Shown here piece by piece: positions 6,309-33,503 of a stretch of 64,000 nucleotides of DNA. The notes beneath the pieces were generated by a model. It searched no databases. It saw only the letters and a program-made list of their open reading frames with translations, and was not told where the DNA came from. The position numbers and the translations under genes were made by a program. Source of the DNA: a virus (taxonomy: Duplodnaviria > Caudoviricetes); the IMG/VR virus record IMGVR_UViG_3300014204_007089, positions 32,001-96,000 of that record; one strand, 5' to 3'. Numbering within the stretch: position 1 is the stretch's first letter; each line of letters opens with the position of its first letter.

Positions 6309-6670
6309 TAATCAACCACCTTATGCTTTTTCTTTTTTTTACGTTTGCTTTGTTGTTCAGTTTTAACAATTTCTTCATGAAGATTCTTTGCAGTTTCTTC
6401 TGAATCAGTTGTTTCAAAATCAGGTTTATCAGATTTAATAATCTTTTGAGCCATTTCAGGATTAGAAAAAGACCCAATAAATATTGCTTGATTCCTTAAT
6501 TTCTCAGCTTCTAATTCCATATCATGAATCCAACTCTCATACAACCATACTCTTAAATATGGGTTAATATTCTCATAAAAAGGATCATCTGGCAATTTAC
6601 CGAAAGTTTTAACTAAAAATCTAATAAATTGATGCTCTGGAGTTCTAACTACTTTTATTGATTGCCTGTA
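6308..6670 (-). CDS. Tail assembly chaperone, second (T-like) ORF, probably reached by frameshift
   Basis: Frame open 6670-6308 with no ATG near its 5' end; overlaps the 3' end of the upstream chaperone in the +1 frame; ORF track uses a TTG at 6595. Confidence 0.55.
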   Translation of the reverse strand, partial: YRQSIKVVRTPEHQFIRFLVKTFGKLPDDPFYENINPYLRVWLYESWIHDMELEAEKLRNQAIFIGSFSNPEMAQKIIKSDKPDFETTDSEETAKNLHEEIVKTEQQSKRKKKKKHKVVD

Positions 6671-7337
6671 CTACCTCCTTAGCTTGCTCTTGGGTTCTTG
6701 GAATATAACCATCATAAGTTTCTGAACTCAACTCATCAAACTTATTAAATAAATGATCTATTAATGCTCCATCCATTTCAGATATCAAATCTTTTTTAGC
6801 TTCAATTTGTTCTTCATAAGATGAATCAAATGTACCTAATACAAGATCTACTAATTGACCATCAACCATATATAATGAATAAGATAATGCTACAAGCTTC
6901 ATATTATATAAACTTGTTGGTTTGAATGTAGTTCTTCCATCTGATAATACAATTCTTTCAGCTTGCTCAACTGCTTGTGCATAACAATTTTGCTCAAATG
7001 ATTTTAACGATCTTAAAGTAAAAACAGTTGTAATATCATCATTACCAACCGATACATCTTTTGTTTTTCTACCAATGCCGGTAATGATATCAATCCTACG
7101 CATTGCTTCTTTGCTAGATTTTTGTTCTTGTTGTTCTGATTGCTCCATAGCCATTTGTCGTCTACGCGCAACTTCTGCAGGATTAATCATTTGTCTAGTA
7201 GGTTGTTGCGGTAACTCATTTGGTATATTTTCATAATTTTCTTGTCCATCTGGAATACTCCAATTACGAACTGATGGTTGTTGACCAGATCCACTACGTT
7301 GTTTATTACTTCCAATAGCACTATGTATATTTGCCAT
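6645..7337 (-). CDS. Tail assembly chaperone (G-like)
   Basis: 230 aa between tail tube and tape measure; 'FTLRSL' motif resembles tail chaperones. Confidence 0.55.
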   Translation of the reverse strand: MANIHSAIGSNKQRSGSGQQPSVRNWSIPDGQENYENIPNELPQQPTRQMINPAEVARRRQMAMEQSEQQEQKSSKEAMRRIDIITGIGRKTKDVSVGNDDITTVFTLRSLKSFEQNCYAQAVEQAERIVLSDGRTTFKPTSLYNMKLVALSYSLYMVDGQLVDLVLGTFDSSYEEQIEAKKDLISEMDGALIDHLFNKFDELSSETYDGYIPRTQEQAKEVVQAINKSS

Positions 7338-7414
7338 ATTTTATTATATCCTTATTTATAAATCTAAAAAATTTAGATCTTCTCTATCTTAATATATCAA
7401 GAAAATTAAACAAG

Positions 7415-7444
7415 AAAACCCACAAATTTATAATGTGGGTTTTA
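7415..7444 (-). terminator. Rho-independent terminator after the tail tube gene
   Basis: AAAACCCACA-loop-TGTGGGTTTT inverted repeat with T-runs on both strands. Confidence 0.65.
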
Positions 7445-7468
7445 TTATTTTAATTAAAATTTTAATTA

Positions 7469-8134
7469 TTATGCTGACTCAACCGCATTAATTAGACCAG
7501 CTGCATCTAGAGCACCTCGTCTCTTACCAGTATCAGCTTGTTGTTCAAAGGGATCTGTAAATATAGAACGAAGTTTACGAGCCGAAGTAGCTGATCCTGC
7601 ATATGCAGAATTTCCATCAGTAAGATAAGAAAATATTTGTTCAGCTTCCCAACCCATATCTTCAACAATAACAAAATCACCAGAGTTATATGTTACATCA
7701 ATTTTATTAATCCACACATTTTTAATCTCAGTTGTAATCATATGACCTGTAATACCACTAAGACTGGCATTGTTAGAATCTTCTTCTGCTGCAAATATAT
7801 CAAATACTAAAATATCAAATGGAACACGTTGTGCACATACATGAACAAATCCACGAGAAAAAGCTGCTGCAATTCTTAGATTATCAAATCTTGTTCTAGT
7901 ACAACTGCCTGAAATACTTGTTGAAGACTTTGGAACTGAATCTACATGACCATCTGTTCCTACCTCATCAATCATTGCAATTTGACGACTTTCAGAGATT
8001 GATAATTTAGTAACGGCACCAACAGGATTACCATCTACACTGATTATAATATTTGTACTAACACCTGTTCTAGTAGCATTACGACCAGTTGAACTTGTTA
8101 ATTGAGATTCTGTGTGTGGACTGTAATTTACCAT
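7469..8134 (-). CDS. Tail tube protein
   Basis: 221 aa immediately downstream of the sheath; beta-rich tube-like pattern (VDGNPVGAV..LSISESR....IDEVGTDG). Confidence 0.7.
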   Translation of the reverse strand: MVNYSPHTESQLTSSTGRNATRTGVSTNIIISVDGNPVGAVTKLSISESRQIAMIDEVGTDGHVDSVPKSSTSISGSCTRTRFDNLRIAAAFSRGFVHVCAQRVPFDILVFDIFAAEEDSNNASLSGITGHMITTEIKNVWINKIDVTYNSGDFVIVEDMGWEAEQIFSYLTDGNSAYAGSATSARKLRSIFTDPFEQQADTGKRRGALDAAGLINAVESA

Positions 8135-8269
8135 TTATTACCCTCTATATTTTATATTGCCTTATGCCTAATTTGTACTATAGTATTACTTGATTTTTTT
8201 TTGTAAATAAAGAATTTTTATTAAGGTCAAATTTATTATAACTTAACCTTAAATCATCTCAACTTCAAA

Positions 8270-10744: not shown

Positions 10745-10829
10745 TTATAATCCTCTCAAAGCTATTATTGCCTTATTATATGTTAAACTATTACTATTAG
10801 CTTTGCATAAACTAATACGTAGATATGCA

Positions 10830-11645
10830 TTACAAAATTTCAATTTGATCCAAAAGAGATAATTTTTGATTAATTTCTAAATCAGGAACTATTATATTCT
10901 GAAATTCAGTAGTATTGAATGCTCTAAAATCTATACAAAAATTTATTGTTTCAATTATTCCATCTATTGGTATTAATCTTCTCCACTCACTACGAAAATC
11001 AACATTAATAGAAGCTTTATAAAGTTTATCTTGTTGACGATCTTCACCTTCGGAAACTCCGCCAAGACTTGGTTGACCAGATTTTATTAATAAACCAGCC
11101 TTTCTAAAACTTTCAAATCTTATATCAGCAAACATTAACATCAAAATATCTACAAGATTATCTCTAGAATAAATATCTCTTGTTAATATATCTATTGTTA
11201 AAGTTCCTTCCCAAGCTCCTGATAAATCAATATATTTAGGAGTAAAATATGATCTAAAATTTCCATATCCATCATCTATATAATATTTTTCATATTCAAT
11301 TATATCTTTATTTCTATTCATTGAAATTGGAACATATTTAGCAGATGATACTTTTACCAAAATAGCAGGATAGAATATTGCATCAAAATGACATGCTTCT
11401 CCAATATAAATTCTAGTTGTTAGATTATCATTATATCCAGCATCTTGTGGTAAATCTGTAATATCAACTACTTTTGGAAATCCAAATTCATCAGATACAT
11501 ATCTATAATATGTATCTTGAGCAAACTCTTCCCTAAGGATTCCTATAACTAATTCTTTAGGATAAGATGTAAGCGCGTTCTGTACAACATTATGTATATT
11601 GTACAGTTCATGCCTTACAAGATTTCCAGTTCCTGGAGTTGTCAT
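10830..11645 (-). CDS. Tail completion / neck protein
   Basis: 271 aa upstream of the sheath; YPAILV and 'RDNLVD' patterns resemble tail terminators; synteny. Confidence 0.5.
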   Translation of the reverse strand: MTTPGTGNLVRHELYNIHNVVQNALTSYPKELVIGILREEFAQDTYYRYVSDEFGFPKVVDITDLPQDAGYNDNLTTRIYIGEACHFDAIFYPAILVKVSSAKYVPISMNRNKDIIEYEKYYIDDGYGNFRSYFTPKYIDLSGAWEGTLTIDILTRDIYSRDNLVDILMLMFADIRFESFRKAGLLIKSGQPSLGGVSEGEDRQQDKLYKASINVDFRSEWRRLIPIDGIIETINFCIDFRAFNTTEFQNIIVPDLEINQKLSLLDQIEIL

Positions 11646-11651
11646 AAAATA

Positions 11652-11664
11652 ATACTAAAATATT
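11652..11664 (-). promoter_or_regulatory. Candidate late promoter, type example of (A/C)ATA-N5-GTAT
   Basis: AATATTTTAGTAT 6 nt before the ATG; similar motifs at 19745-19757, 23491-23503, 26105-26117, 21388-21400, 10815-10827 and 33539-33551. Confidence 0.5.
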
Positions 11665-11688
11665 GCTTATATATTATTGTTTAATATT

Positions 11689-14600
11689 TTATGGATAATC
11701 AAAAGTACCAAAGTTTTCTGAAGATACAATCCAATTTTCTGGATATGTACCAGATATAATATTATTTCTATCAGAAACATCAAACCAATTTGTAGAAATA
11801 AATCCATGACCATCACCTAATACATATATAGGTCTTGTTAAACCAGTTATATTAATTGATTTTAATGTATTTCCAATTATTAAATTATTATTTGTTTTAA
11901 CTGATGCATAAATACCATGTAAAATATTATTGCATTTATTTCCAGTAATAGATAAACTTCCAATAATATACATTGCATAAAGATATTGTAATGAAGTATT
12001 TGAATTACCATTTATAATATTATTTGCACAAATAATTTGATTATTATATGTTGGATTATTTCCAATAACAACTAATGCATATCTCTTTGTGGTTGAAGTT
12101 GTAACTATTTGATTAAATAATATGCTATCATGTACAACAAATGTATTTTCCGAAATAATACAATTATATTCAACAGAATTTATTTTCATAAATTCAACTG
12201 TATTTCCTCTGATAATATATTCTGCTCCATAAATTTCTTCATAATAATCAATTGAGTCGGCATATTTTCCATAACTATTTATAGTAGCAAATATACCACT
12301 TATAATTACTTTGGATTGATTATCTAATATGTGTATTTGATTATTTAATGAATTATTTATTATATTAAATCCAATTAAACCTAATTGATTATTACGAATA
12401 ACACAATTTTCAATATTACAATATGTAGGATTAATCCAACCATTACCAGAAGTAGTAGCATGTCCTGATATTAATAATCCTTGATAACCATCTATCTTTG
12501 TATCTTCAATTATAATATTAGACATTGTAGGATAATTCAAAGATCCTGCACCATTAATATTTATAAAAGCATATGCTAAACTCTTTTTTGCATAATCTGA
12601 TGAATCTTGTAAAATATTTCCACTAAAAGTTATATTTTTAAAAGTATTCGTAGTTCCAAAACATGAAACAAATGGTGGTCTTGGAGTGCTTTGTAAACTA
12701 TAAAAATGTGAGTTTTCAATTATAAAATTTTCTATATTTGTAGCAGGAGTAATAATACTTTTTGCAACAAATGCTCCATAATTATAATTCAAACCAAAAA
12801 TATTTATTGAACTAAGAGTTGTACTTGGTGTATAAAATACTTTTGCATCTTTAATCTTGCAATTTCCTTTAGTAAAAACCAAACCAATGTTACTATTTAA
12901 TTCATAAGTTCCACCAATTAATTCTACATAATTATCAAAAGATAAATATATTTCTGTATCATTAACTTTAACATATTTTACTTTAACTTGAGTAAGTCCA
13001 TATTCATTAACCCAGTTACATAAAGAATCAACTGTTATAAAGTTTGCATTATATCCATCTGTTTCATCACAATTACACCATGTAAAAGATCCTAAATCTT
13101 GATTTGTTATAAATCTACGAGCATCAGTAACTGATTCTAATATAAAAGTACTAGTTAAATCAGCTATAACTTTAGCTATGATTGTTAAATCTTTTCTAGT
13201 ATCAATAATATCTTTAAAACTTAAAGTTTCAATAAAATATTGAGTGCCAGAAGTTGTAAAGAATTGAACACCTACATCTTTAACTATTGCTTTTAATTGA
13301 CCTGTTTTAGTAATACAAATAAAATATTCTACAGTATCACTAATACTAGATTTAATTTCTGGTAATTTTACACTGTAAGAATCCATTGGTACAAATGAAC
13401 CATTTACTAATGCTAAACCACCTGAGAATGTTAAAAGAGATCTCCCAGTAGATCCTGTACCAACACCCTTATATTCGAATCCACGTACAATACCATTAGC
13501 ATGTAAATAACGTTCACCAGATTGTATAAATTCAATAGCAGAATCTGATAGGTTCGTTTCTGATACCGTTCCAAATTCTCTTAAATCAGTAATAGACATA
13601 ACATGATTACTACTATGACTTACACCTGCAATTAAGAAATATTCATCATTTTTTGAAGCTGTTGGAAAAATTTCAATATCTATAATTCTTGGTTCTGTAG
13701 TACATACAATAGTTCCAGGATTAATGGTATCTTCACGATATTCAATATCAATATAATTTATATATGTATTATCATAGAATCTTAATACATTGTCTTTTGT
13801 ACCTTTAGTAATAGGTCCAATATTTATTAAATTAGAAGTGCCATTTGGTTCACCTATATAACCATCAAACTCACCTGTAGATGAATTATAATTTCTAAGA
13901 CATAATCTAACAAAATATCTATATATAGAAGGATCTGTTTGATATCCTATTATTTTTTTAGATACATTACGTATTCTCCAATTATCTTTTAATGTATCAA
14001 ATAATATAACGGTTTGAGTGCTTTTTAAAATTCTTGCACGTTCTATTCCAAATGTATGACCTTCATTATTAATAAATATTTCATGATATCTATGATAATC
14101 ACCAGGAACATTTACAAGTTGTGTAGTATTAAAACCAACAGAATCGTCTGAGAAATAAATTCTTACAATATCTCCTATTGAAGATGTTGCTCCTAAAGCT
14201 ATATCTATATCATCAGAATGAACACCATTTATAACACTTATAGTTGTAGTTTGTACAATATCACAAGGAGCATTATAAGATACTTTACCAATAATAAATC
14301 TTCCATATCCAATAATACTTGGGTCATTTTGATTTATTGATTGTATAACAATTGTTTTACCAGGTTTTAAACCTTCAGATCTTAAATCTGCATTAATTTC
14401 ATATTGGACAACTTGAGATCCATCAACAATATTTACATCATTAACTACTGCTAATAAATATCCATCACCTTGTACAAAGTTTTTAGAACCAACTAAATCC
14501 CTTCTTGTTCCATTAATAACAGCATAACGATATTTTACTGGTTTAATTATAAACGTTGATAAATTAGAAGCTGATTGTGGTCCTGAATACGAAGTTGTAT

Positions 14601-16305
14601 TTATAGGAGATGCAAAACCAGCTCTTGATAAACCCAATCCTAATGGATCATTGCCATCATACGCATCCCCAATAACATTTTGTGTATAAATAGATGGAAT
14701 TATTGTATCACCACTAACAACACCATTTATAATAGAAAAAGAAGATTCATTATAAAAATCTGCTAACATTATACCAAATTCACCCTTTTGATTAAAAGCA
14801 ATAAATCTGTAATTATAACCAGCGGCTCTAAATGCTTTGTTTGTTTCTTCAACAACTCTATCTATTGTATATTTTCCACAACTAGCTCCTGCATCTCCTG
14901 TAACATCTATAGGTGGCAAATTTGAAAATGATGTTAATGTAGTATCTAAATATAATCTTAAATAAAGATTATAATGAGTAGAATCTAATTGGCCAGGATC
15001 AAACCCTAATCCAACAGCAACAGCTCCTCTTGGATTACCTAAAATAATTCCATCAGGATATGGTGAAATTCCTGGAAGAACAGGAAATATATTTTGATAT
15101 GCCCCAGCAGCTACAAATACACCCCATGTATTTGTATCAAATTTAGACTTATCAATTCTTGCACGTGCATATCCATCTATAACATTTACCAAATTATATG
15201 CATTAATTCTTACTACCCATTTTCTTTCAGGTACAAATTCATGAGAAACTGATTTAATTGGAAAATCTTCAGATACATACGAATATCCATCCTGCCAAAT
15301 ATATCCATCTTCTCCTTCATCCCAAATATAACCATCATATCCAGACCAAACTGGATATGTTATACGTACAATATCACCAACTAAAACACGTCCAAATTTT
15401 TCATCAAAAGAATAACTATCAATATCTTCTTGAGATGGTATAAATTCAACAATATCATCACCATTAGCTATTGTGTCATTTGGATCTGTTTGATCTGGCA
15501 TTGCTAAATAAACATATACTGATGTTAATGGAACAACATTCATTCCATATCCATCACCAGATAAATTATCATTTCTAGCAGTACGACAAATTCCATTTGA
15601 ATGTAATGTAGCTCTATCAAGACCAGCTGATAATGTTTCTCTTTGATCTAAATAATTAAATACAGATTGTACATTTGTTTTATCTACTGGAATTTCTAAA
15701 AATTCTGAAGAATCAACTTCAATAGCGCTAGCTACATGAGCATTTGTTATTTCATTTTCATGACCAATTAATTCGTTATTAATTTCTACTAATGCAGATG
15801 CTACATTAACCGATGGTCTTGGAGTTCCATCTTTTTCATATAAAGTATATAAACCACCATCTAACATAATAGCACTAGCATTATGATTAGATGAAGTTCC
15901 TGCTATATGTCCTATAATATTTAGATTAAGATTTAATAAACTTAATTGAATAGAAGAAATAGAACTTACTAAAGTTTCTATTCTATTATTTAAACTTGAA
16001 GTTCCAAAATCAAGTTTAAGTTTTGATTCTATTATATTTGCATTTGTTGCAATTTGATTATTATCAATTGGAAATGTCGGTAATCCTAAACCAGTTAAAT
16101 TAGGAGTTCCATCAGCATTGATAAAAACAGAAATACGATCATTTAAATTTGTTTTTGAACCTTGCACATTTATACCAATTGTTTTTTCAATAGAAAAAAC
16201 AGCTTGTCTTAATTGGTTTATTGCAGTAGTTCCAAGTTCAGATAAATTATCATCAATCCTAACTACACTTACATCATTATCAATTGCTGAAGGATAAGTT
16301 GTCAT
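11689..16305 (-). CDS. Large tail fibre / baseplate-attached protein with C-terminal parallel beta-helix
   Basis: 1538 aa; N-terminal anchor similar to that of 28596..33503; C-terminal I..N.I beta-helix repeats; 9 DGY motifs. Confidence 0.6.
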   Translation of the reverse strand: MTTYPSAIDNDVSVVRIDDNLSELGTTAINQLRQAVFSIEKTIGINVQGSKTNLNDRISVFINADGTPNLTGLGLPTFPIDNNQIATNANIIESKLKLDFGTSSLNNRIETLVSSISSIQLSLLNLNLNIIGHIAGTSSNHNASAIMLDGGLYTLYEKDGTPRPSVNVASALVEINNELIGHENEITNAHVASAIEVDSSEFLEIPVDKTNVQSVFNYLDQRETLSAGLDRATLHSNGICRTARNDNLSGDGYGMNVVPLTSVYVYLAMPDQTDPNDTIANGDDIVEFIPSQEDIDSYSFDEKFGRVLVGDIVRITYPVWSGYDGYIWDEGEDGYIWQDGYSYVSEDFPIKSVSHEFVPERKWVVRINAYNLVNVIDGYARARIDKSKFDTNTWGVFVAAGAYQNIFPVLPGISPYPDGIILGNPRGAVAVGLGFDPGQLDSTHYNLYLRLYLDTTLTSFSNLPPIDVTGDAGASCGKYTIDRVVEETNKAFRAAGYNYRFIAFNQKGEFGIMLADFYNESSFSIINGVVSGDTIIPSIYTQNVIGDAYDGNDPLGLGLSRAGFASPINTTSYSGPQSASNLSTFIIKPVKYRYAVINGTRRDLVGSKNFVQGDGYLLAVVNDVNIVDGSQVVQYEINADLRSEGLKPGKTIVIQSINQNDPSIIGYGRFIIGKVSYNAPCDIVQTTTISVINGVHSDDIDIALGATSSIGDIVRIYFSDDSVGFNTTQLVNVPGDYHRYHEIFINNEGHTFGIERARILKSTQTVILFDTLKDNWRIRNVSKKIIGYQTDPSIYRYFVRLCLRNYNSSTGEFDGYIGEPNGTSNLINIGPITKGTKDNVLRFYDNTYINYIDIEYREDTINPGTIVCTTEPRIIDIEIFPTASKNDEYFLIAGVSHSSNHVMSITDLREFGTVSETNLSDSAIEFIQSGERYLHANGIVRGFEYKGVGTGSTGRSLLTFSGGLALVNGSFVPMDSYSVKLPEIKSSISDTVEYFICITKTGQLKAIVKDVGVQFFTTSGTQYFIETLSFKDIIDTRKDLTIIAKVIADLTSTFILESVTDARRFITNQDLGSFTWCNCDETDGYNANFITVDSLCNWVNEYGLTQVKVKYVKVNDTEIYLSFDNYVELIGGTYELNSNIGLVFTKGNCKIKDAKVFYTPSTTLSSINIFGLNYNYGAFVAKSIITPATNIENFIIENSHFYSLQSTPRPPFVSCFGTTNTFKNITFSGNILQDSSDYAKKSLAYAFININGAGSLNYPTMSNIIIEDTKIDGYQGLLISGHATTSGNGWINPTYCNIENCVIRNNQLGLIGFNIINNSLNNQIHILDNQSKVIISGIFATINSYGKYADSIDYYEEIYGAEYIIRGNTVEFMKINSVEYNCIISENTFVVHDSILFNQIVTTSTTKRYALVVIGNNPTYNNQIICANNIINGNSNTSLQYLYAMYIIGSLSITGNKCNNILHGIYASVKTNNNLIIGNTLKSINITGLTRPIYVLGDGHGFISTNWFDVSDRNNIISGTYPENWIVSSENFGTFDYP

Positions 16306-16765: not shown

Positions 16766-19738
16766 TTAAAAATCATAATTACCATAATTCTCTGATGTTA
16801 AAATCCAATCACTAGCTCCTGACCCATCTAAAATTATTGTTTCATCATCAATATCAAACCAATTTGATGAGACTATACCATGTCCACCTACTACAAAAAT
16901 TGGTTCAGTCATAGAAACTTTATAATTAGAATTAAAAGAATTTCCACAAATTAAACTACCATTCATTGTAGCATTAAGTTGAATAAAATTATTTGCTAAA
17001 GTACCAACATTACAATACCATGATAAAATCATATTACTATTTATATTTGCAATACCACTAGTTACTATAGATGTTGCACAATGATATTGTGTAAGTATTC
17101 CAGTGTTTCTATGTTCTATAGTATTATTTATAACTTTTACTATAGAATATATACCCGCATAATAAGTATTTATTCCTAGGGCACTTATTATATTAACAGT
17201 CATAGCAGTGCCATTAGGATATACAAGAGTATAATCATGACATGAATAATTTACATCATTTGAATTAAAATTAACATTCCAACCAGGTGCCATTATATTT
17301 ACCAAACACCCAATTAAAGTTCCATATTCAGACCTTACATCAATTGGTCTTACATTCGTTCCTGTTAAAACTCCAATAAATTTATTATCAGAAATATTAA
17401 TAGATGAAGAAGATATTTGACCTTCTTCATCAGAAAGAACACTGCCAACACACATTGTATGATTAGAATATCCTGCAGTAGATGTTTTTATACATAATAC
17501 ATTACTTATACCATTAGTTGGAATATCATGATGTCTAATTTCATTTCCATGTATATTAATTTTACCACCAATAATTCCAGAACCACTACTAACACTAAAA
17601 TCATAAATATAAACAGGAATTCCACCAATTATTTTGTTGTTATTTAATTCTATTAATTTTTCAGATGATAAATAACAACAAATAATTGAATGTAAAAAAT
17701 CACCTGTTACATATAAACCTTTTTGATCTGGTCCAGAAATATTACTATTATTAATTACTAAAGAATTTGTACCTGTAATATTAGTGTGATATTTATAATA
17801 ATTTACAGAATTTAATAAACTAGCAGATACTAATACTTGTGGACTGTTTATATTTATATTATCTATAAATACGTTATAAGCATTTATAAAAATATAACTT
17901 TTTTGATTTGTAATAGCTGATTTTGTTCTTATTCCACTAGCGGTTAGATTAAATATACAATTTTCTAAAGATACATAAGCATTAACATTGTTAACTCTAA
18001 AACCATAACCATAACCATTAAAATAACAATTTAAAACATAGCAAGAACTTGATAATATATCTAAATTAACAATATCACTAAATACTCCGGTTTGTTCAAA
18101 TCTACAATTTTCTACAATGGCACTTTTTGTATTTTCAATACCTACAGTACAATTAATAAATGAAACATTTTTGAAAATATTATAATCTTGAACATCTTGT
18201 AAATTAGAAATAATTTGTTGAGGATGATTAATTGCTACAAATTCAATATTTTCTGCTTTACCAATATAATTAGTATAAACTCCAGAAGTTAAATTTTGAA
18301 TATCAGAATTTAATTGAATAATAACTTTACGACTTGTTCCATATGTACTACTAGTACTAATATTTCCAATAATTTTTCCAACTTTAAGTTGAGTATTAAC
18401 AGTATATGTTCCAGGATTAACAATAATAATCTGTTCACCCCTACTACTAAGATAATTTTCATCTATACTTGAAATACCAAGCGCGGTTGTATTTATTAAA
18501 GAATTAACTAATTCAAGAGAATCTGTTCCTGTAAAATCACCAGTTGAATGTATACCATCACCTATTGTAATATACCATGGATTACTTTTAACTGATCCCC
18601 AAAAATTTCCTACATCAGATAATATAAAAGCCCATTTAACAACCCTTGAATCAAGAATATAATTAGTACGAGACATTAATTCATTTGAATCAGGATTATC
18701 AGTTATAAAAATACTACCTTTATTTCCAATCAAACTAACAAATGCATTTTCAACTGGTACAGCTTGCGCTATCAGATTTAAAAAATATCCATATTTTGTA
18801 TACCCTGTTAAAGTATATGCAAAATAATAATTATTATGAATAAAAATTTTACCAATACAAGTTGAAATAAAATAACCAGTATTTGTTGTTGTTATAGTCC
18901 TTACCCTGCAATTTTCTACACGTAATTCTGATAAATGAGGTTCATTAGTTGGTGCAAATCTTATAGCTGTACTAACACCATCAATATAACATTTATTTAA
19001 ATGAAGAATTGTTGGAGTACTAACAGGTGCTGGTGAAACAGGTGTAACAACTCTTATACCATAACGAGTTGTTATTCCACCATATACGCGACCAATAATT
19101 GTAACATTTTCTAATAATAATTCGCACCCTTCGTCCATTTGTATTAATTGTCCATTAGTCCAAGAAGGTGCTCCACTATTTACATTTCCGTCTTTATTAT
19201 CAAATATGGTTATATTCCAAAGTCTACTCATTTTTGTAGATATTATTGTTTCAAGACCATGTATACCAAGATTTTCAATATCTTCTGAATATAAAAATTT
19301 AAAAGCTGGACCATTAATAACTTCTGATACTATTCTAGCTCCACCTGGTTCTCCCCAAATAGTAATACCTTTAGGAACCTCAACGGTTTTTCTTAAAATA
19401 TAATCACCAGGTTTAATTACAATAATTCCACCAATACCATTGATTCTAATTCTGGCAAAAGCCCATTGAAATGCATAATATAAATCTTCTTTTGGAAGAG
19501 TATTATAACCATCTCCAATAGTAATAAAACCACCATTAAGACCACTAAAAGCTAATTCTTCTAATGTTCCTTGTAATGTTGTCGATGTAAATTCAGGAAG
19601 TACAGGATTTAAATCTATTTGAGTAGCATCATGTCTAAAATCACCACCATTATAATGTGCAACGAAATTCTGATTATGAGTAGCTGAATACCCACCTTCT
19701 CGTTCACGTCCACTTCCAATAAATCTAGTTCTGACCAT
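16766..19738 (-). CDS. Tailspike-like pectin-lyase-fold (beta-helix) protein
   Basis: GGIIVIKPGDY...VPKGITIWGE motif typical of tailspike beta-helix entry; a second IIVNPGTY copy; Asn/Ile-rich repeats. Confidence 0.65.
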   Translation of the reverse strand: MVRTRFIGSGREREGGYSATHNQNFVAHYNGGDFRHDATQIDLNPVLPEFTSTTLQGTLEELAFSGLNGGFITIGDGYNTLPKEDLYYAFQWAFARIRINGIGGIIVIKPGDYILRKTVEVPKGITIWGEPGGARIVSEVINGPAFKFLYSEDIENLGIHGLETIISTKMSRLWNITIFDNKDGNVNSGAPSWTNGQLIQMDEGCELLLENVTIIGRVYGGITTRYGIRVVTPVSPAPVSTPTILHLNKCYIDGVSTAIRFAPTNEPHLSELRVENCRVRTITTTNTGYFISTCIGKIFIHNNYYFAYTLTGYTKYGYFLNLIAQAVPVENAFVSLIGNKGSIFITDNPDSNELMSRTNYILDSRVVKWAFILSDVGNFWGSVKSNPWYITIGDGIHSTGDFTGTDSLELVNSLINTTALGISSIDENYLSSRGEQIIIVNPGTYTVNTQLKVGKIIGNISTSSTYGTSRKVIIQLNSDIQNLTSGVYTNYIGKAENIEFVAINHPQQIISNLQDVQDYNIFKNVSFINCTVGIENTKSAIVENCRFEQTGVFSDIVNLDILSSSCYVLNCYFNGYGYGFRVNNVNAYVSLENCIFNLTASGIRTKSAITNQKSYIFINAYNVFIDNININSPQVLVSASLLNSVNYYKYHTNITGTNSLVINNSNISGPDQKGLYVTGDFLHSIICCYLSSEKLIELNNNKIIGGIPVYIYDFSVSSGSGIIGGKINIHGNEIRHHDIPTNGISNVLCIKTSTAGYSNHTMCVGSVLSDEEGQISSSSINISDNKFIGVLTGTNVRPIDVRSEYGTLIGCLVNIMAPGWNVNFNSNDVNYSCHDYTLVYPNGTAMTVNIISALGINTYYAGIYSIVKVINNTIEHRNTGILTQYHCATSIVTSGIANINSNMILSWYCNVGTLANNFIQLNATMNGSLICGNSFNSNYKVSMTEPIFVVGGHGIVSSNWFDIDDETIILDGSGASDWILTSENYGNYDF

Positions 19739-19766: not shown

Positions 19767-21377
19767 TTAAGGCATAATAATTTGATGACTATGAGAAAAT
19801 AAATCTATTACAATTCCATTTACAACAGCATGTCCATGACCTTGTTCACTACTCGTTATCTGATTTATTTGAGAAATATTAATAATTTTCTCAGAAATTT
19901 TTACACGATGCATATGTGGAATTAAAATACCATTAGGCCCTAACATCATACCAATAGTTGTAAGTATTTCTGATGGCATTGTACTAGTATCTCTAAAAGA
20001 ACGAACTTGATAAATAGGATCTGTCTTACGCACTCTTATAGCTGTAAATTTTTGTAAACCAGAATCTTCTAATAATGTTCTATTTCTCTCAACATCTATA
20101 ATTTCATATCTCCATTCTTCAGAACCATCTTTATTAAATCTAATTATAAAATCACCATCTTGAACTGATGGTGTAACTAATGTCCAACACTTTGGAATAT
20201 AAGTATTTTCAATACCAGGATCTTCTCTCTTAAGATCTTCTGTTGTAGGTCCAAAACGTACAAGAATTTTCCCATCACTTCTTCGTGAATTATAATATTG
20301 ATCATATCCATTTACCATAGACGTACCATAATTATCTAATCCACGGTAAGTTGTATTTTCTCTAGTAGAATCATAATGTTGTGATTGTTTACCTTCCCAT
20401 TTTCTTCTAAACAAAACAACTGGTTCACCAGTATTTTCAAGTAAATATTCTTCTCTCATATTCATATGTTCTTGAACACCAATGCCACGAATAGCATTAC
20501 CAACACCCCATTCTCCATCGGCACAACCAAGCTCCCCTCCGAAATATGTACCAATACATCTTCCTGCAATATAATCTGATACACTGTTACGATCCCAACC
20601 AGTATTATCATATTTTGGAAAATCTGAATTGGCAGCATCTACTACTGCTAAATTACTATTTCCAGTTAAAATATCTACACGTTCTCTATAACCATCTACT
20701 ATTGTTCGTGCATATTGAAATTCAAATTTATTTTCATCCAAACCTATTACATTATTTCCATCTTCAAAACCTTTCCAAAGACGAACAATTCCATCAGAAT
20801 AATGATAACCATCATATCCATCAATTGTATGACTTCTAGGTTCGTATCCATAAACTCCACGTTGATCATAACCATCTAAAATTAAATATCCATTTACATA
20901 ATCAACCGAAGAATAATAAATTGGTTCTGCCCCTATTAAAACAATTCCAGTAGAAGGAAATCCATCAGCATCATTAAGTGGAATTATAAGATCTGTAGCT
21001 GAAATATTATATCTTAAAGCAGCTTCCGGATATATGTAAAACCCATTTATGTTAGGAAGCTCATTAAATCTTAAAGTTTCAGGCTCATGACCAGATGCAC
21101 GAACAGCAAAATAATAAATACTACCAGGTGTAAAACCATCTTGTATCATCATAGATAAAATATTATTTGGTGCTACAAATTTTACACCTTCTGTAAAAAT
21201 ACTTTCTTTTATTGATGAAAAATAAATATTATAAACCAAATCCCAATTTGATGGCGAAATATAAGATCTATACCATTCTAAAGAAATAGAATATCCATCT
21301 CCATGAGCTATAACTGTTTTAACCCCATGAAGTGAACTATCAAATGTCCAAATTTTAATTGGTGATGTACATATCAT
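19767..21377 (-). CDS. Virion neck/head-closure-like protein with FN3-like N-terminus
   Basis: L.W....YNIY...YYFAVRA FN3 pattern; C-terminal 'GEPVVLFRR...DGDFIIR...RYEI' resembles neck proteins; 5 DGY motifs. Confidence 0.5.
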   Translation of the reverse strand: MICTSPIKIWTFDSSLHGVKTVIAHGDGYSISLEWYRSYISPSNWDLVYNIYFSSIKESIFTEGVKFVAPNNILSMMIQDGFTPGSIYYFAVRASGHEPETLRFNELPNINGFYIYPEAALRYNISATDLIIPLNDADGFPSTGIVLIGAEPIYYSSVDYVNGYLILDGYDQRGVYGYEPRSHTIDGYDGYHYSDGIVRLWKGFEDGNNVIGLDENKFEFQYARTIVDGYRERVDILTGNSNLAVVDAANSDFPKYDNTGWDRNSVSDYIAGRCIGTYFGGELGCADGEWGVGNAIRGIGVQEHMNMREEYLLENTGEPVVLFRRKWEGKQSQHYDSTRENTTYRGLDNYGTSMVNGYDQYYNSRRSDGKILVRFGPTTEDLKREDPGIENTYIPKCWTLVTPSVQDGDFIIRFNKDGSEEWRYEIIDVERNRTLLEDSGLQKFTAIRVRKTDPIYQVRSFRDTSTMPSEILTTIGMMLGPNGILIPHMHRVKISEKIINISQINQITSSEQGHGHAVVNGIVIDLFSHSHQIIMP

Positions 21378-25644: not shown

Positions 25645-25714
25645 ATTAAACTCCTATTAATAATATACAAATTAATTAGCCTTTAAATTTGCATAATAAT
25701 TATTTTACCAAAGA

Positions 25715-26098
25715 TTAAATAGGTGAAACGGATGAATTTCCAAAAGGTCTTGCAACATTAATTGCAAAAGAATCCCATTGTGGTTGGCCATTATTTTCCC
25801 AATACACATTAGCTACATAAGTACCTAAAGCAGTAATACCTGTAGGTATTAATAATCCATGAATATATAAACCTGAAACATATCCATCACCATCTACACC
25901 TGGAACATATCCATCGCCAGTTATGTAAACTTGAGTCATATGTCTTGGATAACCAACAGCCACACTAAAATCTGGAAATATTATATTTTGTACAACTGGA
26001 ATATAGCCATCAATTCTATAACCATCAATATCAAGTGTTTGAATAACCAAACGAACTAATTGTCCAGTATTAGCGAATATATATTTTGTAGATCCCAT
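25715..26098 (-). CDS. Small beta-rich virion-associated protein with 4 DGY motifs
   Basis: 127 aa; Ig-like pattern ending GTYVANVYW; candidate late promoter 6 nt upstream. Confidence 0.5.
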   Translation of the reverse strand: MGSTKYIFANTGQLVRLVIQTLDIDGYRIDGYIPVVQNIIFPDFSVAVGYPRHMTQVYITGDGYVPGVDGDGYVSGLYIHGLLIPTGITALGTYVANVYWENNGQPQWDSFAINVARPFGNSSVSPI

Positions 26099-26112
26099 GT
26101 ACTTATGCTATA

Positions 26113-26794: not shown

Positions 26795-26828
26795 ATTAAC
26801 TTCCTATAAAATGAATAACTAATTATGC

Positions 26829-27122: not shown

Positions 27123-27123
27123 A

Positions 27124-27438
27124 TTAAACCTTTTTATAATAAATTTCTTGTATACCCGGAATATTACTTATACCATTTTTTTCATATACAACTATTCTTT
27201 GATATGGTAAATTAGTAGATGGTAATATTCCAAAAATCTTAATTTTTTCTTCATGAACTTTATTGTGACAATTTGCACATATTACACATACATTAGTCCA
27301 ATCATCCTTACATTCATCATCTGTTCTTGGTATTATATGATGATATTGTAATGTAGATTTATCTAATTCATTGCAAATTTCACAAAAGAATTTTTTAGGT
27401 TTTTTAGTACCATTTCCTTTTTTAACATATCTACCCAT
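27124..27438 (-). CDS. Small HNH endonuclease
   Basis: CEIC...HHIIP...N...CANCHNKVH. Confidence 0.85.
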   Translation of the reverse strand: MGRYVKKGNGTKKPKKFFCEICNELDKSTLQYHHIIPRTDDECKDDWTNVCVICANCHNKVHEEKIKIFGILPSTNLPYQRIVVYEKNGISNIPGIQEIYYKKV

Positions 27439-27451
27439 GATTATTAATATA

Positions 27452-28595: not shown

Positions 28596-31500
28596 TTACA
28601 ACCAAGAAGATCCTCTTAATACTATCCAATTTGTACCATCAAATAATAATTCAACTGATCCTTTAGAATCTAACGTATATATTAGTGTAGTATCTGCTCT
28701 TTTTATATAGGCATGATAAGATACGCCAGAATCGTCACGAAGAATTTCAATTAAATCTCCTTTAATAGCATCTATTGCAGAAAGCGTTATTGAATGATGA
28801 TTTGTATATGTTGTAGTTGTACGCGCTCTACGAGTTGCATAACCAATTCCAGCATCTGAATCTGGAAGATTATATATATCTGCACTAGGTGCTGGTTGAG
28901 AAATCCATTCTGGTACGGCATAAGTAGACCAACAAATCCATTCACAAGAACCATCTGTTGTGATAGTTCCGAGAGTTGTATTCCATGTTGGTTCAACAGA
29001 TCCTGATGTTCCTCCAGTTATTATTGCAAAAATATGTGTATTGATAGTATTTCTTATAACGTTAGATGAAGCAGCTCCATAAGCTTGATTATTTGTCCAA
29101 TATCCATCATTAAGAGGTACACAATATCCTCCAGTTGTTTTATTTTTTATAGCCAACCTAGATGGATTAGACCATAATAATAAATCTCCAGCCTGATAGC
29201 AACCAGTTGTTGGTACACCACTTACAACACTAAGTAGTGATTTACCTACTCCTAAATGAAATTTATCAACTTGAAACATATCACCTTGAGCACTTCCTTG
29301 TTCAATTTGATATGCTATTTTATATTGAGAATATTGTCTAGAACCCATACTCCAAATTCTTGTCGTATAATTAAATAAAAATCGTAAATGACCACGTAGT
29401 TGAGATGCTCCATCAGATTGTGTATATGTTTCAAAAGCACAATAATCAGTTCCTGGCCATGACATCACCGAAGTTAATGGATGAGTACATGTTGGATTAT
29501 AATTTACCATACCATAATTAAAACCATTACTACTTGGCAATGGTGACCATTTCATAGTTCCTTTAATTAATGTACCTGCTCCAATTACCCCACCACTACC
29601 ATGAGAAGGTGAATATAAATAATGATCAGGTGCTGCAGATGCAACATCTTCCCAATAGCAACCATCAAAACGAGAACATGATTGTACTCCTGTTAATGAA
29701 TTTTGAGGTCCTCTATAATTAGACTCCCAAAAACAATTCATAAAACGCGAACCATAAAATCCAAGATCTACAAGACCAGCTCCACAAACGCCTACAAAAG
29801 CATTATTAAATGTAGCAATACTAGCATCATAACCTTCTATATAAATACCACCACCACATTCATAAGCTGAAATATTATCAAATATAGCACCATCTGTATT
29901 TGTTCCAGTTCCACTACTTTTACCATTTAAAAACCAAGCCCATCCTGAAGAAAATGTAACACATACATGATTAGCTGACATTTGTGCTGATGTTAAAATA
30001 CCAGCACCCCAAATAACAGGCATCCATTCAGCTGTTAAACTTATTCCATTATCAAGTGTAATCGAATTATGAATTTTACTCCATATTGGTTCTGTTAATC
30101 CTGAAGTTCCACTACTTCCAATCCTATATCTAAAACCAGTTTCATACCCATCAGAAGGTACAACATATCTACCGCTTACTAAATCTCCACCAGGAGTCCA
30201 TAATTTCACTGTTGCATATGTATTATGAACTGAGTTTGCAACAATTTCTGTTCCAGCAACTTCAAAAGCTCCAGGTATTAATGGTGCTTTAACACCATCA
30301 ATATATAATTTATTATAAGCTATTAAACCAAAATGTTCTAATATTGATTGAGCTGCTGTAATTGTTTTATAATTAGCACAAGTCCATACAACACTTCCAT
30401 CTGTAATTGTTGTACCAACTGTATATGTAAAAGTAGGATATGTTGTTCCAGTTATACCAGGCGTAGTACATTCCCAAATATATGTTAAATTATTCCAATA
30501 TCTTGCTGGTCTTAACGAATCCCCAAGTTTTACAGGAACACCAGGTGTCCATTGAGGACAATCTCTATTATGATCTATAGATAATCCATAAAGAGAATCT
30601 ATAGGTCTAATTTGTGATATTGGAATATTCCAGTTACCACCATGTCCACGAATTGAAGATGTTTTCATTACATGTATATCATCCCAAATTAAAAATTCAC
30701 CACGTGGAATTTCAATATCTCCTCCAAGATATATTGGAGAATTTGGCATTTTTGGAAAAGAATCAAGAGCATCTGTAATAGCAGACCAATTATCATTATA
30801 TACATTTAAACTAGAAACTGTAGTTCTAGCAGGTGTATTAATTATAAGATTTGTTGTTCCACCACCTGAAATAATACGTGTTCTTAAATAGTTTGATTGT
30901 GATGATACAGGTTCTGTTAATGGAAACATTGGTAATGTAGAAATGGCTGTTTCAGAATCAATAACTACTACAGGTCTATGTGATCCAGTAGCATTTGAAT
31001 AACTTAATGTTATTTGTCCAGGAATAACTTTTCTAAGTGTAAAACTTCCAACTCCACCTCTTCTTACATAAATTAAATACCATGTTGCACCTGGAATAAT
31101 TTCTGGCCAAACTCCTAACCAATTTGTTTTAGTAAATGCCGCTGCGGCATTTACTATAGTAGTAGCAGATGATGCTACTGTATAGCCTCTATGACGAGTT
31201 GCTGCTACTACTTTAACTTCTACTGTTGATGCTCCTGTAGTGCCTTGTTGAAAAACTTCTGGAGCATTAGGTGTTTTTAATCCATGTGCAGATCCTGCAC
31301 CTTGAATAACTATTCCATAATTATTTAATAATTCAGAACCATCTGCAACAATTAAAGTAGAAGATCCATTATTAATAGATCCTGTAGTAGAAATATAATG
31401 ATCAGAAGCAGAATAAGGATAATCTGTAATAACAACAGTATCATTACGTTTAAAATGTCTTTGACCATCATTTTCAATACTACTAGATAAAGATGATTCA

Positions 31501-33503
31501 ATAATTGAATAATCAATTCCATTACCAGTAGAGCTGGCTTGTACTATTTTATTAGCATCTCCTGCTCCTGGAACTATTCCATTAATTACAATATCATTTC
31601 CATTTTTATCAGTTGATATTAAATAACCATCTGAATTTCTAAACCATAAAGTTGAACTTCCATCAACTGGATTTCCACCAGGAACTGAATTTTGACCAAC
31701 TAATACTAATCCTGTTGGATCTATTAATCCATCAACCGTTAATTTTCCACCAATTGTTACATTATTTGCAAAATAACTATCGTAATAAACTTCTAATGGT
31801 GCAATATCACAATCTTTATCAATTTTAACAACAAGATTAAATTCAGAATCTAAAAACAGAATTCTTCCATCTAAACCATCAGTAGCTGCACCAGGAAGTA
31901 TTAAAACATCTCCTCCATATAAACTACCTTCTCCAGCATAAATATTAACAGATCCTCCATAATAACCATCACCAGCTTCAATCTGTAAACGTCCACCTAG
32001 ATTTTCTCCAGATCCACTATCACCACAAATAAGATGAATATTTCCACCATAACCAATTGAACTAGTTCCTGCAAACAAAGCAATATCACCTGGATATTCA
32101 TAACCATTTCCTGAAGTGATAACTGTATTTCCACCAATAGAATTTGAACTATTTCCTCCACCAATGGTTAATTCACCTCCAATATCATAACCATCTCCTC
32201 CAAGTAAATAAATACTACCACCAGAACTTAATAAACTTGTAGTTCCAATAATACTACAACCATCACTTAATACTATTCCATTTGAATTTATTAAATTATT
32301 AACTGTTAAATTGTTTGTAAAATAACCATCAGCAGCATATAAAGATCCCCAACGATATCCATCTTGATTTGCACCAAGATCTATTCCTGGATTTCCTGGA
32401 TATGTATTATTAGGATCTAATACTGAACACATACTTGTTTCATTAATTCTTATAAAACGATTATGATATTCTTCTTCATTACCTACCCATAATTCAATAG
32501 CACTTCCAGGATTAAAACTAGTTGAACAAATTTGAATTACATTATCATCATTTTCTACTTTAACTACAGTCTTATTTTTTGAAGATAATGTACACACATC
32601 ATCTGATGATAATGTAGCTATACCATATCCGTCTAAAGATAATGATGAGCCACCATCCCTTCCTACAAACATATTTATAGAACCAAATGTATTATTATTA
32701 ATATTTAATGTTTTTATAGCGCCATAATAAGTACTTTCATTTATTTCTATTGTAAAACTACCTGTACTATAAATTTTATCATTTTCTGTAATTACAATAT
32801 CAGTACCATCAGTAATATTTCCAATTGATAATGTTTCTGATAAACTTTCACCACCATTCACTCCAGCAATAAATATAACTTTAGAATAATAAACTTCTAC
32901 AATATCAGTAGTTCTTAATGTTTGTGTTCCTAACCATGTAAGAGTTTTACTAGATATTGAATAGTCTCCAATCTCCTGTTTTATACCATCTATAAATAAT
33001 GCAAGTGAATTTAACCAAGGTTTTGTTAAAAGAGTAAATGTTGTTTGACCTGGAGAAGAAACTATTAAAGCTTCATGAATTGGACAATATCCATCACTGC
33101 TGTAACCATCACTTCCACCACCAGTAATTGTTATTTCTGCTTCATCTGTTCCAACTTTTGCAACTGAAACTCCACTACCAATAAAATTAATAACAGATAC
33201 TGGATTTACAATTGAAACACCGTTATTTCTAATATCAATATAAGCATATCCATCATTATATCCATCACGACTCTCTAAAGCATCAAGTCTGGCACGTACA
33301 GTTCCATATGTTCCACTAGGCTTTATACCCAATTCAGACTCAATAGCTAAAATTGAATCTTTTTGACGATTTACAACCTCTGCTTTTACTGGAGTTTTTA
33401 AATCTATAACTGTAGGTAAACCATGAGTATCTCCTGGTGTAGGGTCATCGAAATCAAATGGATAACGAGTATATATAAATGATGGATTATAAAGCCTTAC
33501 CAT
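28596..33503 (-). CDS. Long tail fibre / adhesin
   Basis: 1635 aa; Gly-rich GG.I.I..G.G repeats, beta-helix segment, three W..G..GT.EP.W...GT..TDG.V.W carbohydrate-binding-like modules; 12 DGY motifs. Confidence 0.7.
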   Translation of the reverse strand: MVRLYNPSFIYTRYPFDFDDPTPGDTHGLPTVIDLKTPVKAEVVNRQKDSILAIESELGIKPSGTYGTVRARLDALESRDGYNDGYAYIDIRNNGVSIVNPVSVINFIGSGVSVAKVGTDEAEITITGGGSDGYSSDGYCPIHEALIVSSPGQTTFTLLTKPWLNSLALFIDGIKQEIGDYSISSKTLTWLGTQTLRTTDIVEVYYSKVIFIAGVNGGESLSETLSIGNITDGTDIVITENDKIYSTGSFTIEINESTYYGAIKTLNINNNTFGSINMFVGRDGGSSLSLDGYGIATLSSDDVCTLSSKNKTVVKVENDDNVIQICSTSFNPGSAIELWVGNEEEYHNRFIRINETSMCSVLDPNNTYPGNPGIDLGANQDGYRWGSLYAADGYFTNNLTVNNLINSNGIVLSDGCSIIGTTSLLSSGGSIYLLGGDGYDIGGELTIGGGNSSNSIGGNTVITSGNGYEYPGDIALFAGTSSIGYGGNIHLICGDSGSGENLGGRLQIEAGDGYYGGSVNIYAGEGSLYGGDVLILPGAATDGLDGRILFLDSEFNLVVKIDKDCDIAPLEVYYDSYFANNVTIGGKLTVDGLIDPTGLVLVGQNSVPGGNPVDGSSTLWFRNSDGYLISTDKNGNDIVINGIVPGAGDANKIVQASSTGNGIDYSIIESSLSSSIENDGQRHFKRNDTVVITDYPYSASDHYISTTGSINNGSSTLIVADGSELLNNYGIVIQGAGSAHGLKTPNAPEVFQQGTTGASTVEVKVVAATRHRGYTVASSATTIVNAAAAFTKTNWLGVWPEIIPGATWYLIYVRRGGVGSFTLRKVIPGQITLSYSNATGSHRPVVVIDSETAISTLPMFPLTEPVSSQSNYLRTRIISGGGTTNLIINTPARTTVSSLNVYNDNWSAITDALDSFPKMPNSPIYLGGDIEIPRGEFLIWDDIHVMKTSSIRGHGGNWNIPISQIRPIDSLYGLSIDHNRDCPQWTPGVPVKLGDSLRPARYWNNLTYIWECTTPGITGTTYPTFTYTVGTTITDGSVVWTCANYKTITAAQSILEHFGLIAYNKLYIDGVKAPLIPGAFEVAGTEIVANSVHNTYATVKLWTPGGDLVSGRYVVPSDGYETGFRYRIGSSGTSGLTEPIWSKIHNSITLDNGISLTAEWMPVIWGAGILTSAQMSANHVCVTFSSGWAWFLNGKSSGTGTNTDGAIFDNISAYECGGGIYIEGYDASIATFNNAFVGVCGAGLVDLGFYGSRFMNCFWESNYRGPQNSLTGVQSCSRFDGCYWEDVASAAPDHYLYSPSHGSGGVIGAGTLIKGTMKWSPLPSSNGFNYGMVNYNPTCTHPLTSVMSWPGTDYCAFETYTQSDGASQLRGHLRFLFNYTTRIWSMGSRQYSQYKIAYQIEQGSAQGDMFQVDKFHLGVGKSLLSVVSGVPTTGCYQAGDLLLWSNPSRLAIKNKTTGGYCVPLNDGYWTNNQAYGAASSNVIRNTINTHIFAIITGGTSGSVEPTWNTTLGTITTDGSCEWICWSTYAVPEWISQPAPSADIYNLPDSDAGIGYATRRARTTTTYTNHHSITLSAIDAIKGDLIEILRDDSGVSYHAYIKRADTTLIYTLDSKGSVELLFDGTNWIVLRGSSWL

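Follow-up and report, generated by a model that had tools for sequence, protein, structure and literature searches.

Enrichment of Asp-Gly-Tyr, a candidate glycosylation sequon, in some virion proteins of an uncultured huge phage and related phages

Results

DGY in the structural genes of a phage contig

The DNA analysed here, a 64,000-nucleotide window (bases 32001–96000) of one 106,130-bp viral contig (IMG/VR record IMGVR_UViG_3300014204_007089), holds a block of phage structural genes in which the tripeptide Asp-Gly-Tyr (DGY) recurs far more often than expected by chance. Every gene of the window is encoded on the minus strand, and the guanine-plus-cytosine (GC) content is 21–33%. IMG/VR contigs carrying relatives of its tail sheath gene are up to 459 kb long, and those of relatives bearing a glycosyltransferase of family GT4 (described below) are up to 481 kb; judged from its sequence, the contig is therefore a fragment of an uncultured huge phage. 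Its completeness by CheckV is 25%, and near-identical sheath DNA was found in landfill and groundwater metagenomes, with no RNA dataset listed among the sequencing runs that contain it.

Eight proteins encoded at positions 6645–33503 of the window contain 36 DGY in 6,151 residues (Table 1). An earlier note on this DNA had counted the tripeptide by eye and proposed that it is repeated across virion proteins only; its counts for each of the eight proteins are exact, as is the lack of DGY in the proteins of 33.6–64 kb (0 in 9,406 residues), and there is none at 1–6.6 kb. The enrichment survives shuffling, since the composition of each protein predicts 2.06 DGY at 6.6–33.5 kb and 2000 within-protein shuffles of this region gave a mean of 2.08 and a maximum of 10. 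DGY ranks first among all tripeptides with a z-score of 23.7, the second-ranked having 7.6, and the whole 106-kb contig contains 68 DGY against 6.15 expected. The tandem forms reported earlier (DGYDGY, DGYNDGY, DGYSSDGY and DGYRIDGY) are all present, and genome-wide there are 12 pairs of DGY no more than 10 residues apart where 4.3 would be expected (P = 0.0004).

Virion proteins with and without the motif

Confinement to virion proteins was borne out, but only a subset of these proteins carries the motif. The protein in tail-tube position, the tape measure, the tube initiator, a 1714-amino-acid (aa) hub, a 682-aa protein and every enzyme lack DGY, both here and in orthologues; the place of the tube-position protein after the sheath gene is conserved and it has no DGY in any genome. 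Single DGY are scattered in open reading frames (ORFs) outside structural regions in the complete relative G002. Outside the window the motif is carried by a 1015-aa protein with a dockerin (9 DGY), a 2246-aa LamG-type protein (13), a Baseplate_J protein (2), a 775-aa protein (4) and an S74 chaperone-domain fibre (4). All four sites of the S74 fibre are N-terminal to the cleaved chaperone domain, a placement that is not significant, and sites are generally distributed along the length of the carrier proteins. The carriers other than the sheath presumably face outward.

A fold check confirms the sheath label alone; ‘neck’, ‘spike’, ‘chaperone’, ‘completion’ and ‘fibre’ are putative labels, and searches of PHROG, Pfam and Atlas left the capsid, the portal and most DGY-bearing proteins without an assignment. 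The Atlas model of the 127-aa protein resembles immunoglobulin (Ig)-like, MG2 and head-completion-type domains, which may serve as a lead. The 1635-aa protein matches fibre-type proteins of relatives by BLASTP in short local stretches of 64–277 aligned residues, and orthologues of the 536-aa protein contain 5 and 7 DGY.

Two of the carriers outside the window have further features. A type I dockerin domain is present in the DGY-rich 1015-aa fibre (Pfam E = 1e-6), and DGY in and around it is kept in the homologue consensus; this hints at docking of the cohesin type, either to the host or inside the virion. The predicted structure of this fibre, with a mean predicted local distance difference test (pLDDT) score of 40, was unusable. 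The 775-aa baseplate-region protein has five hydrophobic stretches at residues 85–215, unusual for a virion protein, which may form a membrane-active segment. Two endonuclease genes are interspersed with the virion genes of the window, one of the LAGLIDADG homing type (381 aa) and one of the HNH type (104 aa); the LAGLIDADG ORF is placed differently in relatives, which suggests mobile insertions.

Table 1. Features of the window and of the flanking contig, with DGY counts and those expected from composition where given. Positions are those of the window unless marked as contig.
Feature	Position	Strand	DGY	Remarks
914-aa tape-measure-like protein	3564..6308	–	0	Inner component
230-aa protein between tube and tape-measure genes	6645..7337	–	1	Alone not enriched; orthologues without DGY
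221-aa protein in tail-tube position	7469..8134	–	0	Inner component; negative control
Contractile tail sheath, 824 aa	8270..10744	–	3	At residues 186, 203 and 409
271-aa tail protein, upstream of sheath gene	10830..11645	–	1	
1538-aa fibre-like protein	11689..16305	–	9	0.43 expected
990-aa virion protein	16766..19738	–	1	13 in the G001 orthologue
536-aa virion protein	19767..21377	–	5	0.23 expected; no family match
LAGLIDADG homing endonuclease	23568–24713	–		
127-aa small beta-sandwich-like protein	25715..26098	–	4	0.08 expected
HNH endonuclease	27124–27438	–		
NifS/IscS-type cysteine desulfurase	27452–28528	–		In the structural module
1635-aa fibre-like protein	28596..33503	–	12	0.59 expected; no Pfam or PHROG family
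M24 methionine aminopeptidase, 269 aa	34138–34947	–		
Part of soluble glycan-synthesis cluster	49338..63963	–	0	
IS605 OrfB/TnpB-type gene	54925–56073	–		Inside glycan cluster
IS605 OrfB/TnpB-type gene	60041–61336	–		Inside glycan cluster
Diverged tandem paralogue of 102-aa protein	61542–61802			
102-aa protein of no assigned family	61805–62113	–		
Nucleoside- or DNA-modification-like genes	contig 889–9395			Outside window, 3′ of structural operon
1015-aa dockerin-bearing fibre	contig 9491–12538		9	Outside window
775-aa baseplate-region protein	contig 24979–27306		4	Outside window
Conserved GT4 glycosyltransferase	contig 103003–104121			Beyond window

The excess in relatives and in a sister clade

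The carriers of this phage and many relatives contain DGY at about ten times the chance level. About 100 metagenomic relatives with GC contents of 31–48% share the excess, which in whole records amounts to 78 against 11 expected in G001, 84 against 23 in G002 and 75 against 18 in G016, a complete genome of a deep subclade. All 80 of the 80 loci around sheath homologues (40–71% identity) have a 3–24-fold DGY excess. A sister clade, whose sheath is about 40% identical, has 1.6–2.0-fold DGY genome-wide. Its excess sits in two large fibres directly before GT4 (8 against 1.16 expected, P = 3e-5, and 7 against 1.38, P = 6e-4), the remaining genome being near background, and it keeps GT4 without the set of GT2 glycosyltransferases found here. 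A small ORF of G002 (55719–56099) encodes a low-complexity peptide of Gly, Tyr and Asp, (GDGY/GSGY)n, with a basic tail, and similar tandem DGY-coding repeats occur in the sister-clade records G008 and G009.

Selection at the level of the peptide

The variety of codons at DGY sites had been put forward as evidence that selection acts on the peptide. In this genome the argument is weak because the codons simply follow genome usage (GAT 0.96, GGA 0.43, GGT 0.48, TAT 0.95), and 32 of the 36 sites read GATGG(A/T)TAT, a uniformity that speaks for a DNA-level signal such as a 9-bp element, a methylation- or restriction-related site or a small insertion. The claim itself stands on other grounds. All 36 matches to GAYGGNTAY are in frame 0 of the coding strand, the remaining frames and the opposite strand having no match, and relatives with GC contents of 38–46% freely use all DGY codons, including GAC, GGC, GGG and TAC. 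Relatives spanning GC 0.31–0.48 have a 5–20-fold excess, and 20 clade records (18 together with G001 and G002) contain 38–106 DGY on the coding strand compared with 1–26 on the reverse strand and 1–44 for a reversed-pattern control. Moreover, sites arise by substitution in aligned columns and in indel-rich loops, with no uniform 9-bp insertions. A DNA element is ruled out by frame exclusivity, codon usage and substitutions in aligned columns, and we give it practically no credence. Since matches are restricted to frame 0 and the excess is found in relatives with freely varying codons, these data indicate that selection acts on the DGY peptide and not on DNA.

Strictness and context of the motif

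The DGY-bearing proteins are rich in Gly, Asp and Tyr. In them Tyr follows 68 of 148 Asp-Gly pairs, and the near variants NGY (4), DGF (5), DGW (0) and EGY (1) are at background. Pooling of 57 core loci gave 423 DGY against 46 expected with no enrichment of DAY, DSY, NGY or EGY, and the deeper subclade was equally strict (124 against 16); a relaxed D-(G/A/S)-Y motif was not seen in core, deep or sister loci. The three main DGY columns of the sheath contain, in 56 sequences, none of the single-nucleotide neighbours DGF, NGY and EGY. The eight residues on each side of 367 non-redundant sites hold no more than 0.11 bit per position, so that no hidden repeat or wider domain is apparent around DGY. 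Asp is not notably enriched at −2 or −4 in the same sites, which excludes a DxDxDG, EF-hand or dockerin calcium loop as the general explanation; calcium-loop context is limited to the dockerin domain of the 1015-aa protein. Lysine poverty was rejected as a property of the tag, being shared by the DGY-free tube and tube-initiator proteins. DGY is thus short, strict, free of flanking context and enriched in target proteins only, as a sequon would be, and its strictness points to a specific reader.

Location of DGY in the tail sheath

The AlphaFold2 (AF2) model of the sheath has a mean pLDDT of 83 and aligns with the phage 812 sheath over 321 residues (VIA-align; Z 33.1, root-mean-square deviation 2.7) and with the sheaths of pyocin R2, AFP and PVC with Z of about 25–30; residues 630–819 match PHROG tail sheath. 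The model supports assignment of the gene at 8270–10744 to a contractile tail sheath with the conserved two-domain core. Minimal sheaths align over about 300–330 residues, the core comprising residues ∼28–60 and ∼520–824 and inserted domains occupying residues ∼60–520. In an alignment of 61 sequences, DGY columns were counted over 56 sheaths, and all 12 of 12 columns with DGY in any of them fall at positions 67–417, within the inserted domains, with none in the core of roughly 325 residues. Sites 186 and 203 are modelled in loops adjoining strands, at Gly turns. In solved sheaths (T4 gp18 and relatives) such inserts face outward, and the DGY-bearing inserts probably do so here. Sheath DGY thus lies in loops of inserted domains, and domain mapping makes surface exposure of these loops probable.

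Turnover of sites at maintained number

Alignment of orthologue trios from three genomes gave 88 columns with DGY in at least one genome, of which 19 had it in all three, 11 in two and 58 in one. The residues aligned to DGY are ordinary turn sequences (DGV, NGT, DGI and TGI) or gaps, and numbers can vary widely among orthologues, the 990-aa protein having 1 DGY and its relative 13. In the sheath, by contrast, the number is steady near 3 per subunit, with a variance of 0.53 against 1.31 expected if columns were independent; none of 5000 permutations was as low as observed. Relatedness does not account for the low variance, because kinship would raise the variance rather than shrink it. Two sheath subclades use mutually exclusive sets of positions, 179/186/203 and 67/151/409, and columns 151 and 186 are strongly anticorrelated (r = −0.92). 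Several sheath gains require two or three nucleotide substitutions to reach exact DGY, for example NGT to DGY and RGQ to DGY. These patterns indicate that DGY behaves as a motif selected for presence and dosage, unlike a fold determinant or a fixed interface. They fit the proposal of a short linear motif read by one factor, strict, context-free, repeatedly gained and kept in number, and make the alternative proposal of a fixed docking site unlikely, because positions turn over.

A motif without any reader was also considered, in which DGY is a favoured beta-hairpin turn of the beta-rich structural proteins of this clade that arose from folding, stability or lineage bias. The ordinary turns found in aligned positions, the location of the modelled sheath sites in loops beside strands and the richness of the carriers in Gly, Asp and Tyr all agree with such a turn. 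However, the expectations used throughout already take account of each protein's own composition, the homologous sister clade with the same folds reaches only 1.6–2-fold, and the equally beta-rich tube, hub and 682-aa proteins have no DGY. Nor does a turn preference explain the exclusion of NGY and DGF, the constant sheath number or the independent installation at different columns, and we consider it very unlikely.

Glycan genes and the search for a writer

The window contains part of a soluble glycan-synthesis cluster, with enzymes of the short-chain dehydrogenase/reductase (SDR)/GDP-mannose-dehydratase type, a C-methyltransferase, FkbM, GNAT, two Sulfotransfer_2 proteins and two TnpB. With its continuation beyond the window, the cluster encodes glycosyltransferases assigned by Pfam to GT4, GT2 (four), GT10 and GT11. 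No multi-pass membrane protein was found in it, so no flippase or polymerase is evident, and the cluster fits glycan assembly on a soluble acceptor.

The idea that this cluster co-occurs with DGY survived in part, since most of it is not conserved with the trait but GT4, just outside the window, is universal. It is present in 20 of 21 large records from all three lineages, always directly after fibre genes. In 72 GT4-centred loci the 10 kb upstream contain 848 DGY against 50 expected and the 10 kb downstream, occupied by enzymes, 23 against 32, so that avoidance of DGY outside virion proteins is not evident there. In the deep subclade of G016, GT4 is fused into a 745–764-aa protein with two GT4 modules, which is followed by a 1129-aa protein combining GT-B-like and GT2 domains; G016 has a different glycan cluster at the same position. 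One GT2 and a 323-aa protein, the two widely profiled of the GT2-region genes, occur in the core subclade only, and their absence from the complete, DGY-rich G016 and its subclade excludes them as an obligatory writer.

Two IS605 OrfB/TnpB-type genes (OrfB_IS605, Cas12f1-like TNB) lie within the cluster, and the part flanking them looks recently shuffled, because the genes around them, including both sulfotransferases, have no homologues in relatives. The most conserved protein of the region is one of 102 aa (75–78% identity to G001 and G002), which is accompanied by a diverged tandem paralogue and was not detected in sister genomes.

Contrasting core and deep subclades with the sister clade gave 23 shared genes absent from the latter. 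They are mostly non-glycan and include a cysteine desulfurase, an HNH gene, a sigma-like factor, a methionine aminopeptidase, a flavin adenine dinucleotide (FAD) oxidoreductase and an exonuclease. Because the comparison amounts to essentially one evolutionary transition, phyletic profiles cannot single out the DGY writer. A class-V pyridoxal phosphate (PLP) enzyme considered as reader is a NifS/IscS-type cysteine desulfurase, intact with its PLP lysine in ‘AHKF’ and active-site cysteine in ‘SAC’; it has no plausible link to the motif and was treated as a clade marker. Its sulfur acceptor could be iron–sulfur (Fe-S) enzymes or DNA/RNA thiolation. Likewise rejected as reader was the 269-aa neighbour of the 1635-aa fibre gene, which is an M24 methionine aminopeptidase kept in core and deep subclades and not detected in sister genomes.

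The earlier note had named Tyr sulfation by the sulfotransferases of the window as one candidate. PF03567 and PF13469 had no match in G001, G002, G014, G016 and G018 (four of them complete), while as a positive control PF03567 detects both copies in this genome, and no BLASTP homologue was found in relatives. The sulfotransferases are private to this genome and are rejected as a Tyr-sulfating writer of the TPST or RaxST type by their absence from complete DGY-rich relatives.

The contig region 3′ of the structural operon encodes a radical S-adenosylmethionine (SAM) enzyme, a fusion of GP88 with a nucleoside 2-deoxyribosyltransferase, DUF4326, a GT-B-like protein, a DEDDh exonuclease and an FAD oxidoreductase. 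These genes look like a nucleoside or DNA hypermodification module, which would offer an alternative target for some of the sugar genes.

Such neighbours also bear on whether DGY undergoes covalent chemistry other than glycosylation, be it succinimide or isoaspartate formation at Asp-Gly, Tyr cross-linking that would harden the particle, or the transfer of sulfate, phosphate or a nucleotide to Tyr by an enzyme not recognised here. Carboxylate and phenol are both strictly needed, and among sequences with Asp it is Asp-Gly that forms succinimides most readily. A 413-aa FAD oxidoreductase is conserved among the DGY-rich genomes of the core and deep subclades, with no counterpart detected in sister genomes, and the radical SAM enzyme lies nearby, though it has BLASTP matches in sister genomes. 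The neighbours nonetheless look like nucleoside or DNA modification genes (2-deoxyribosyltransferase, DUF4326 and exonuclease), the sulfotransferases are confined to this genome with none in four complete DGY-rich genomes (PF03567 and PF13469), and cross-links need a partner residue in fixed geometry, which conflicts with turnover. Other covalent chemistry is on balance distinctly unlikely.

Discussion

Something probably reads DGY, most plausibly a sugar-adding enzyme of the phage. The need for a specific reader, the position independence of the sites and their restriction to a subset of virion proteins argue for an enzyme acting at many sites, that is, for a sequon. Tyr glycosylation is the leading candidate because a soluble set of glycosyltransferases, anchored by the universal GT4, is encoded beside the densest carriers. 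We put the probability that DGY is a sequon for cytoplasmic glycosylation of the virion on Tyr at roughly 0.4. The argument proceeds through steps that we infer in turn, namely that a reader exists, that it is an enzyme, that the enzyme is GT4 and that Tyr provides the modified atom; glycosylation by GT4 is plausible from synteny and logic.

On this model, DGY would be a position-independent tag at exposed Gly turns of sheath inserts, baseplate-region proteins, fibres and the small Ig-like protein, read by a specific macromolecule and serving as acceptor sequon of a phage-encoded glycosylation system in the cytoplasm. GT4, encoded directly after the fibres, would add the first sugar to the Tyr hydroxyl, with Asp and Gly supplying recognition and turn geometry. 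From this first sugar, the variable set of soluble glycosyltransferases and tailoring enzymes encoded downstream would build up a glycan that differs between lineages, so that the particle acquires a sugar coat. In its broader form, which is more tentative, DGY would be a clade-wide code that marks surfaces for a phage-made Tyr modification, first in the distal fibres adjacent to GT4 and later in the sheath, the baseplate region and other proteins.

Non-covalent recognition could account for much of the same pattern. Hairpins tipped with Tyr and bearing a carboxylate might make many weak contacts with host capsule, exopolysaccharide or the mineral and organic surfaces of sediment or landfill, or they might bind a decoration or chaperone protein of the phage that recognises the turn. 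The distribution over a virion subset, tandem clustering and position independence fit multivalent binding equally well; DGY is densest in distal fibres and in the sister clade found only there, Asp plus Tyr is a common sugar-contact pair and the search for a writer identified none. Generic adhesion, however, should tolerate NGY, SGY, DGF and DGW, all of which are at background, and a docking partner should hold sites in position, whereas 66% of sites occur in one lineage only and all three sheath sites are exchanged between subclades. The search also gave no candidate for a reader protein, and we regard non-covalent binding as a credible contender that is nevertheless unlikely.

Several points weigh against glycosylation by GT4. 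No modification of DGY has been observed, the case being built from sequence, and we know of no described glycosyltransferase that uses D-G-Y. GT4 matches only generic GT-B models among PDB sequences and NCBIfam, far below any curated cut-off, and what links it to DGY is gene order conserved in a single broad clade, which counts as roughly one evolutionary event rather than as independent co-occurrence. The DGY-rich state is tracked best by another gene, the cysteine desulfurase (13 of 14 records against 0 of 7 in the sister clade), and since that gene has no obvious link to the motif, such profiles are weak evidence. The glycan cluster could act on DNA or another acceptor, with nucleoside- or DNA-type modification genes nearby. 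Solvent exposure of the sheath sites is deduced from domain mapping and DSSP only, and the major capsid protein is among those that the PHROG, Pfam and Atlas searches did not identify.

The clade comprises hundreds of metagenomic members with genomes of 200–480 kb. Were glycosylation correct, DGY would be the first virion-wide sequon and the system the first Tyr-directed protein glycosylation system to be described in a bacterial virus. A three-residue tag with soluble enzymes would amount to a programmable surface coating able to glycosylate any exposed loop, its Tyr-directed cytoplasmic chemistry would be usable as a tagging tool, and it would be relevant to the escape of very large virions from adsorption traps, proteases or host surface defences in sediments, groundwater and landfill. 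Should the reader be something else, there is still a clear and testable signal, a strict tripeptide whose dosage is constant on some virion proteins in hundreds of genomes; a full-text literature search for DGY or Asp-Gly-Tyr with phage terms returned nothing relevant, and we found no published account of it.

Among known sequons, N-X-S/T and the D-(S/T)-(A/I/L/V/M/T) motif of Bacteroidota are minimal context-free tripeptides in surface loops that are gained and lost fast while their number is conserved. Their readers are membrane oligosaccharyltransferases, which work outside the cytoplasm and modify Asn, Ser or Thr. DGY is likewise a context-free tripeptide in which number prevails over position, and the Bacteroidota motif also starts with Asp. 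Unlike these, it has Gly in the middle, so that only Tyr or Asp could be the acceptor, and virions assemble in the cytoplasm. Closer in this last respect are GtfA and SdgA/SdgB of Gram-positive adhesins, GT-B/GT4 enzymes whose genes adjoin those of their substrates, repetitive surface proteins on which they initiate glycosylation in the cytoplasm; these enzymes, however, act on Ser in Ser-rich or Ser-Asp repeats. GT4 of this genome had no match to the GtfA or SdgA/SdgB models, and the fused GT4 of G016 scored 39–52 bits where the cut-offs are 575–800, which reflects the generic fold.

That a Tyr hydroxyl can accept sugar is established by glycogenin, by Tyr-linked S-layer glycans and by toxins of Photorhabdus and Yersinia, which put N-acetylglucosamine on Tyr (PMC4518317, PMC11152714). 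Those systems differ in being GT-A toxins or self-glucosylating, with single defined targets, no DGY and none in virions.

The nearest viral parallel is glycosylation of mycobacteriophage virions by phage-encoded glycosyltransferases (Freeman et al. 2023, as summarised in PMC12619734), where soluble phage enzymes are proposed to decorate structural proteins in the cytoplasm and so produce a glycan coat. The phage described here also encodes its own glycosyltransferases. In that summary, the mycobacteriophage glycans are placed at the C-termini of capsid and tail-tube subunits, with no sequon (PMC12619734). Here, by contrast, the protein in tube position is free of DGY in all genomes, and the presumed Tyr acceptor would lie in a strict tripeptide at internal turns spread over many proteins.

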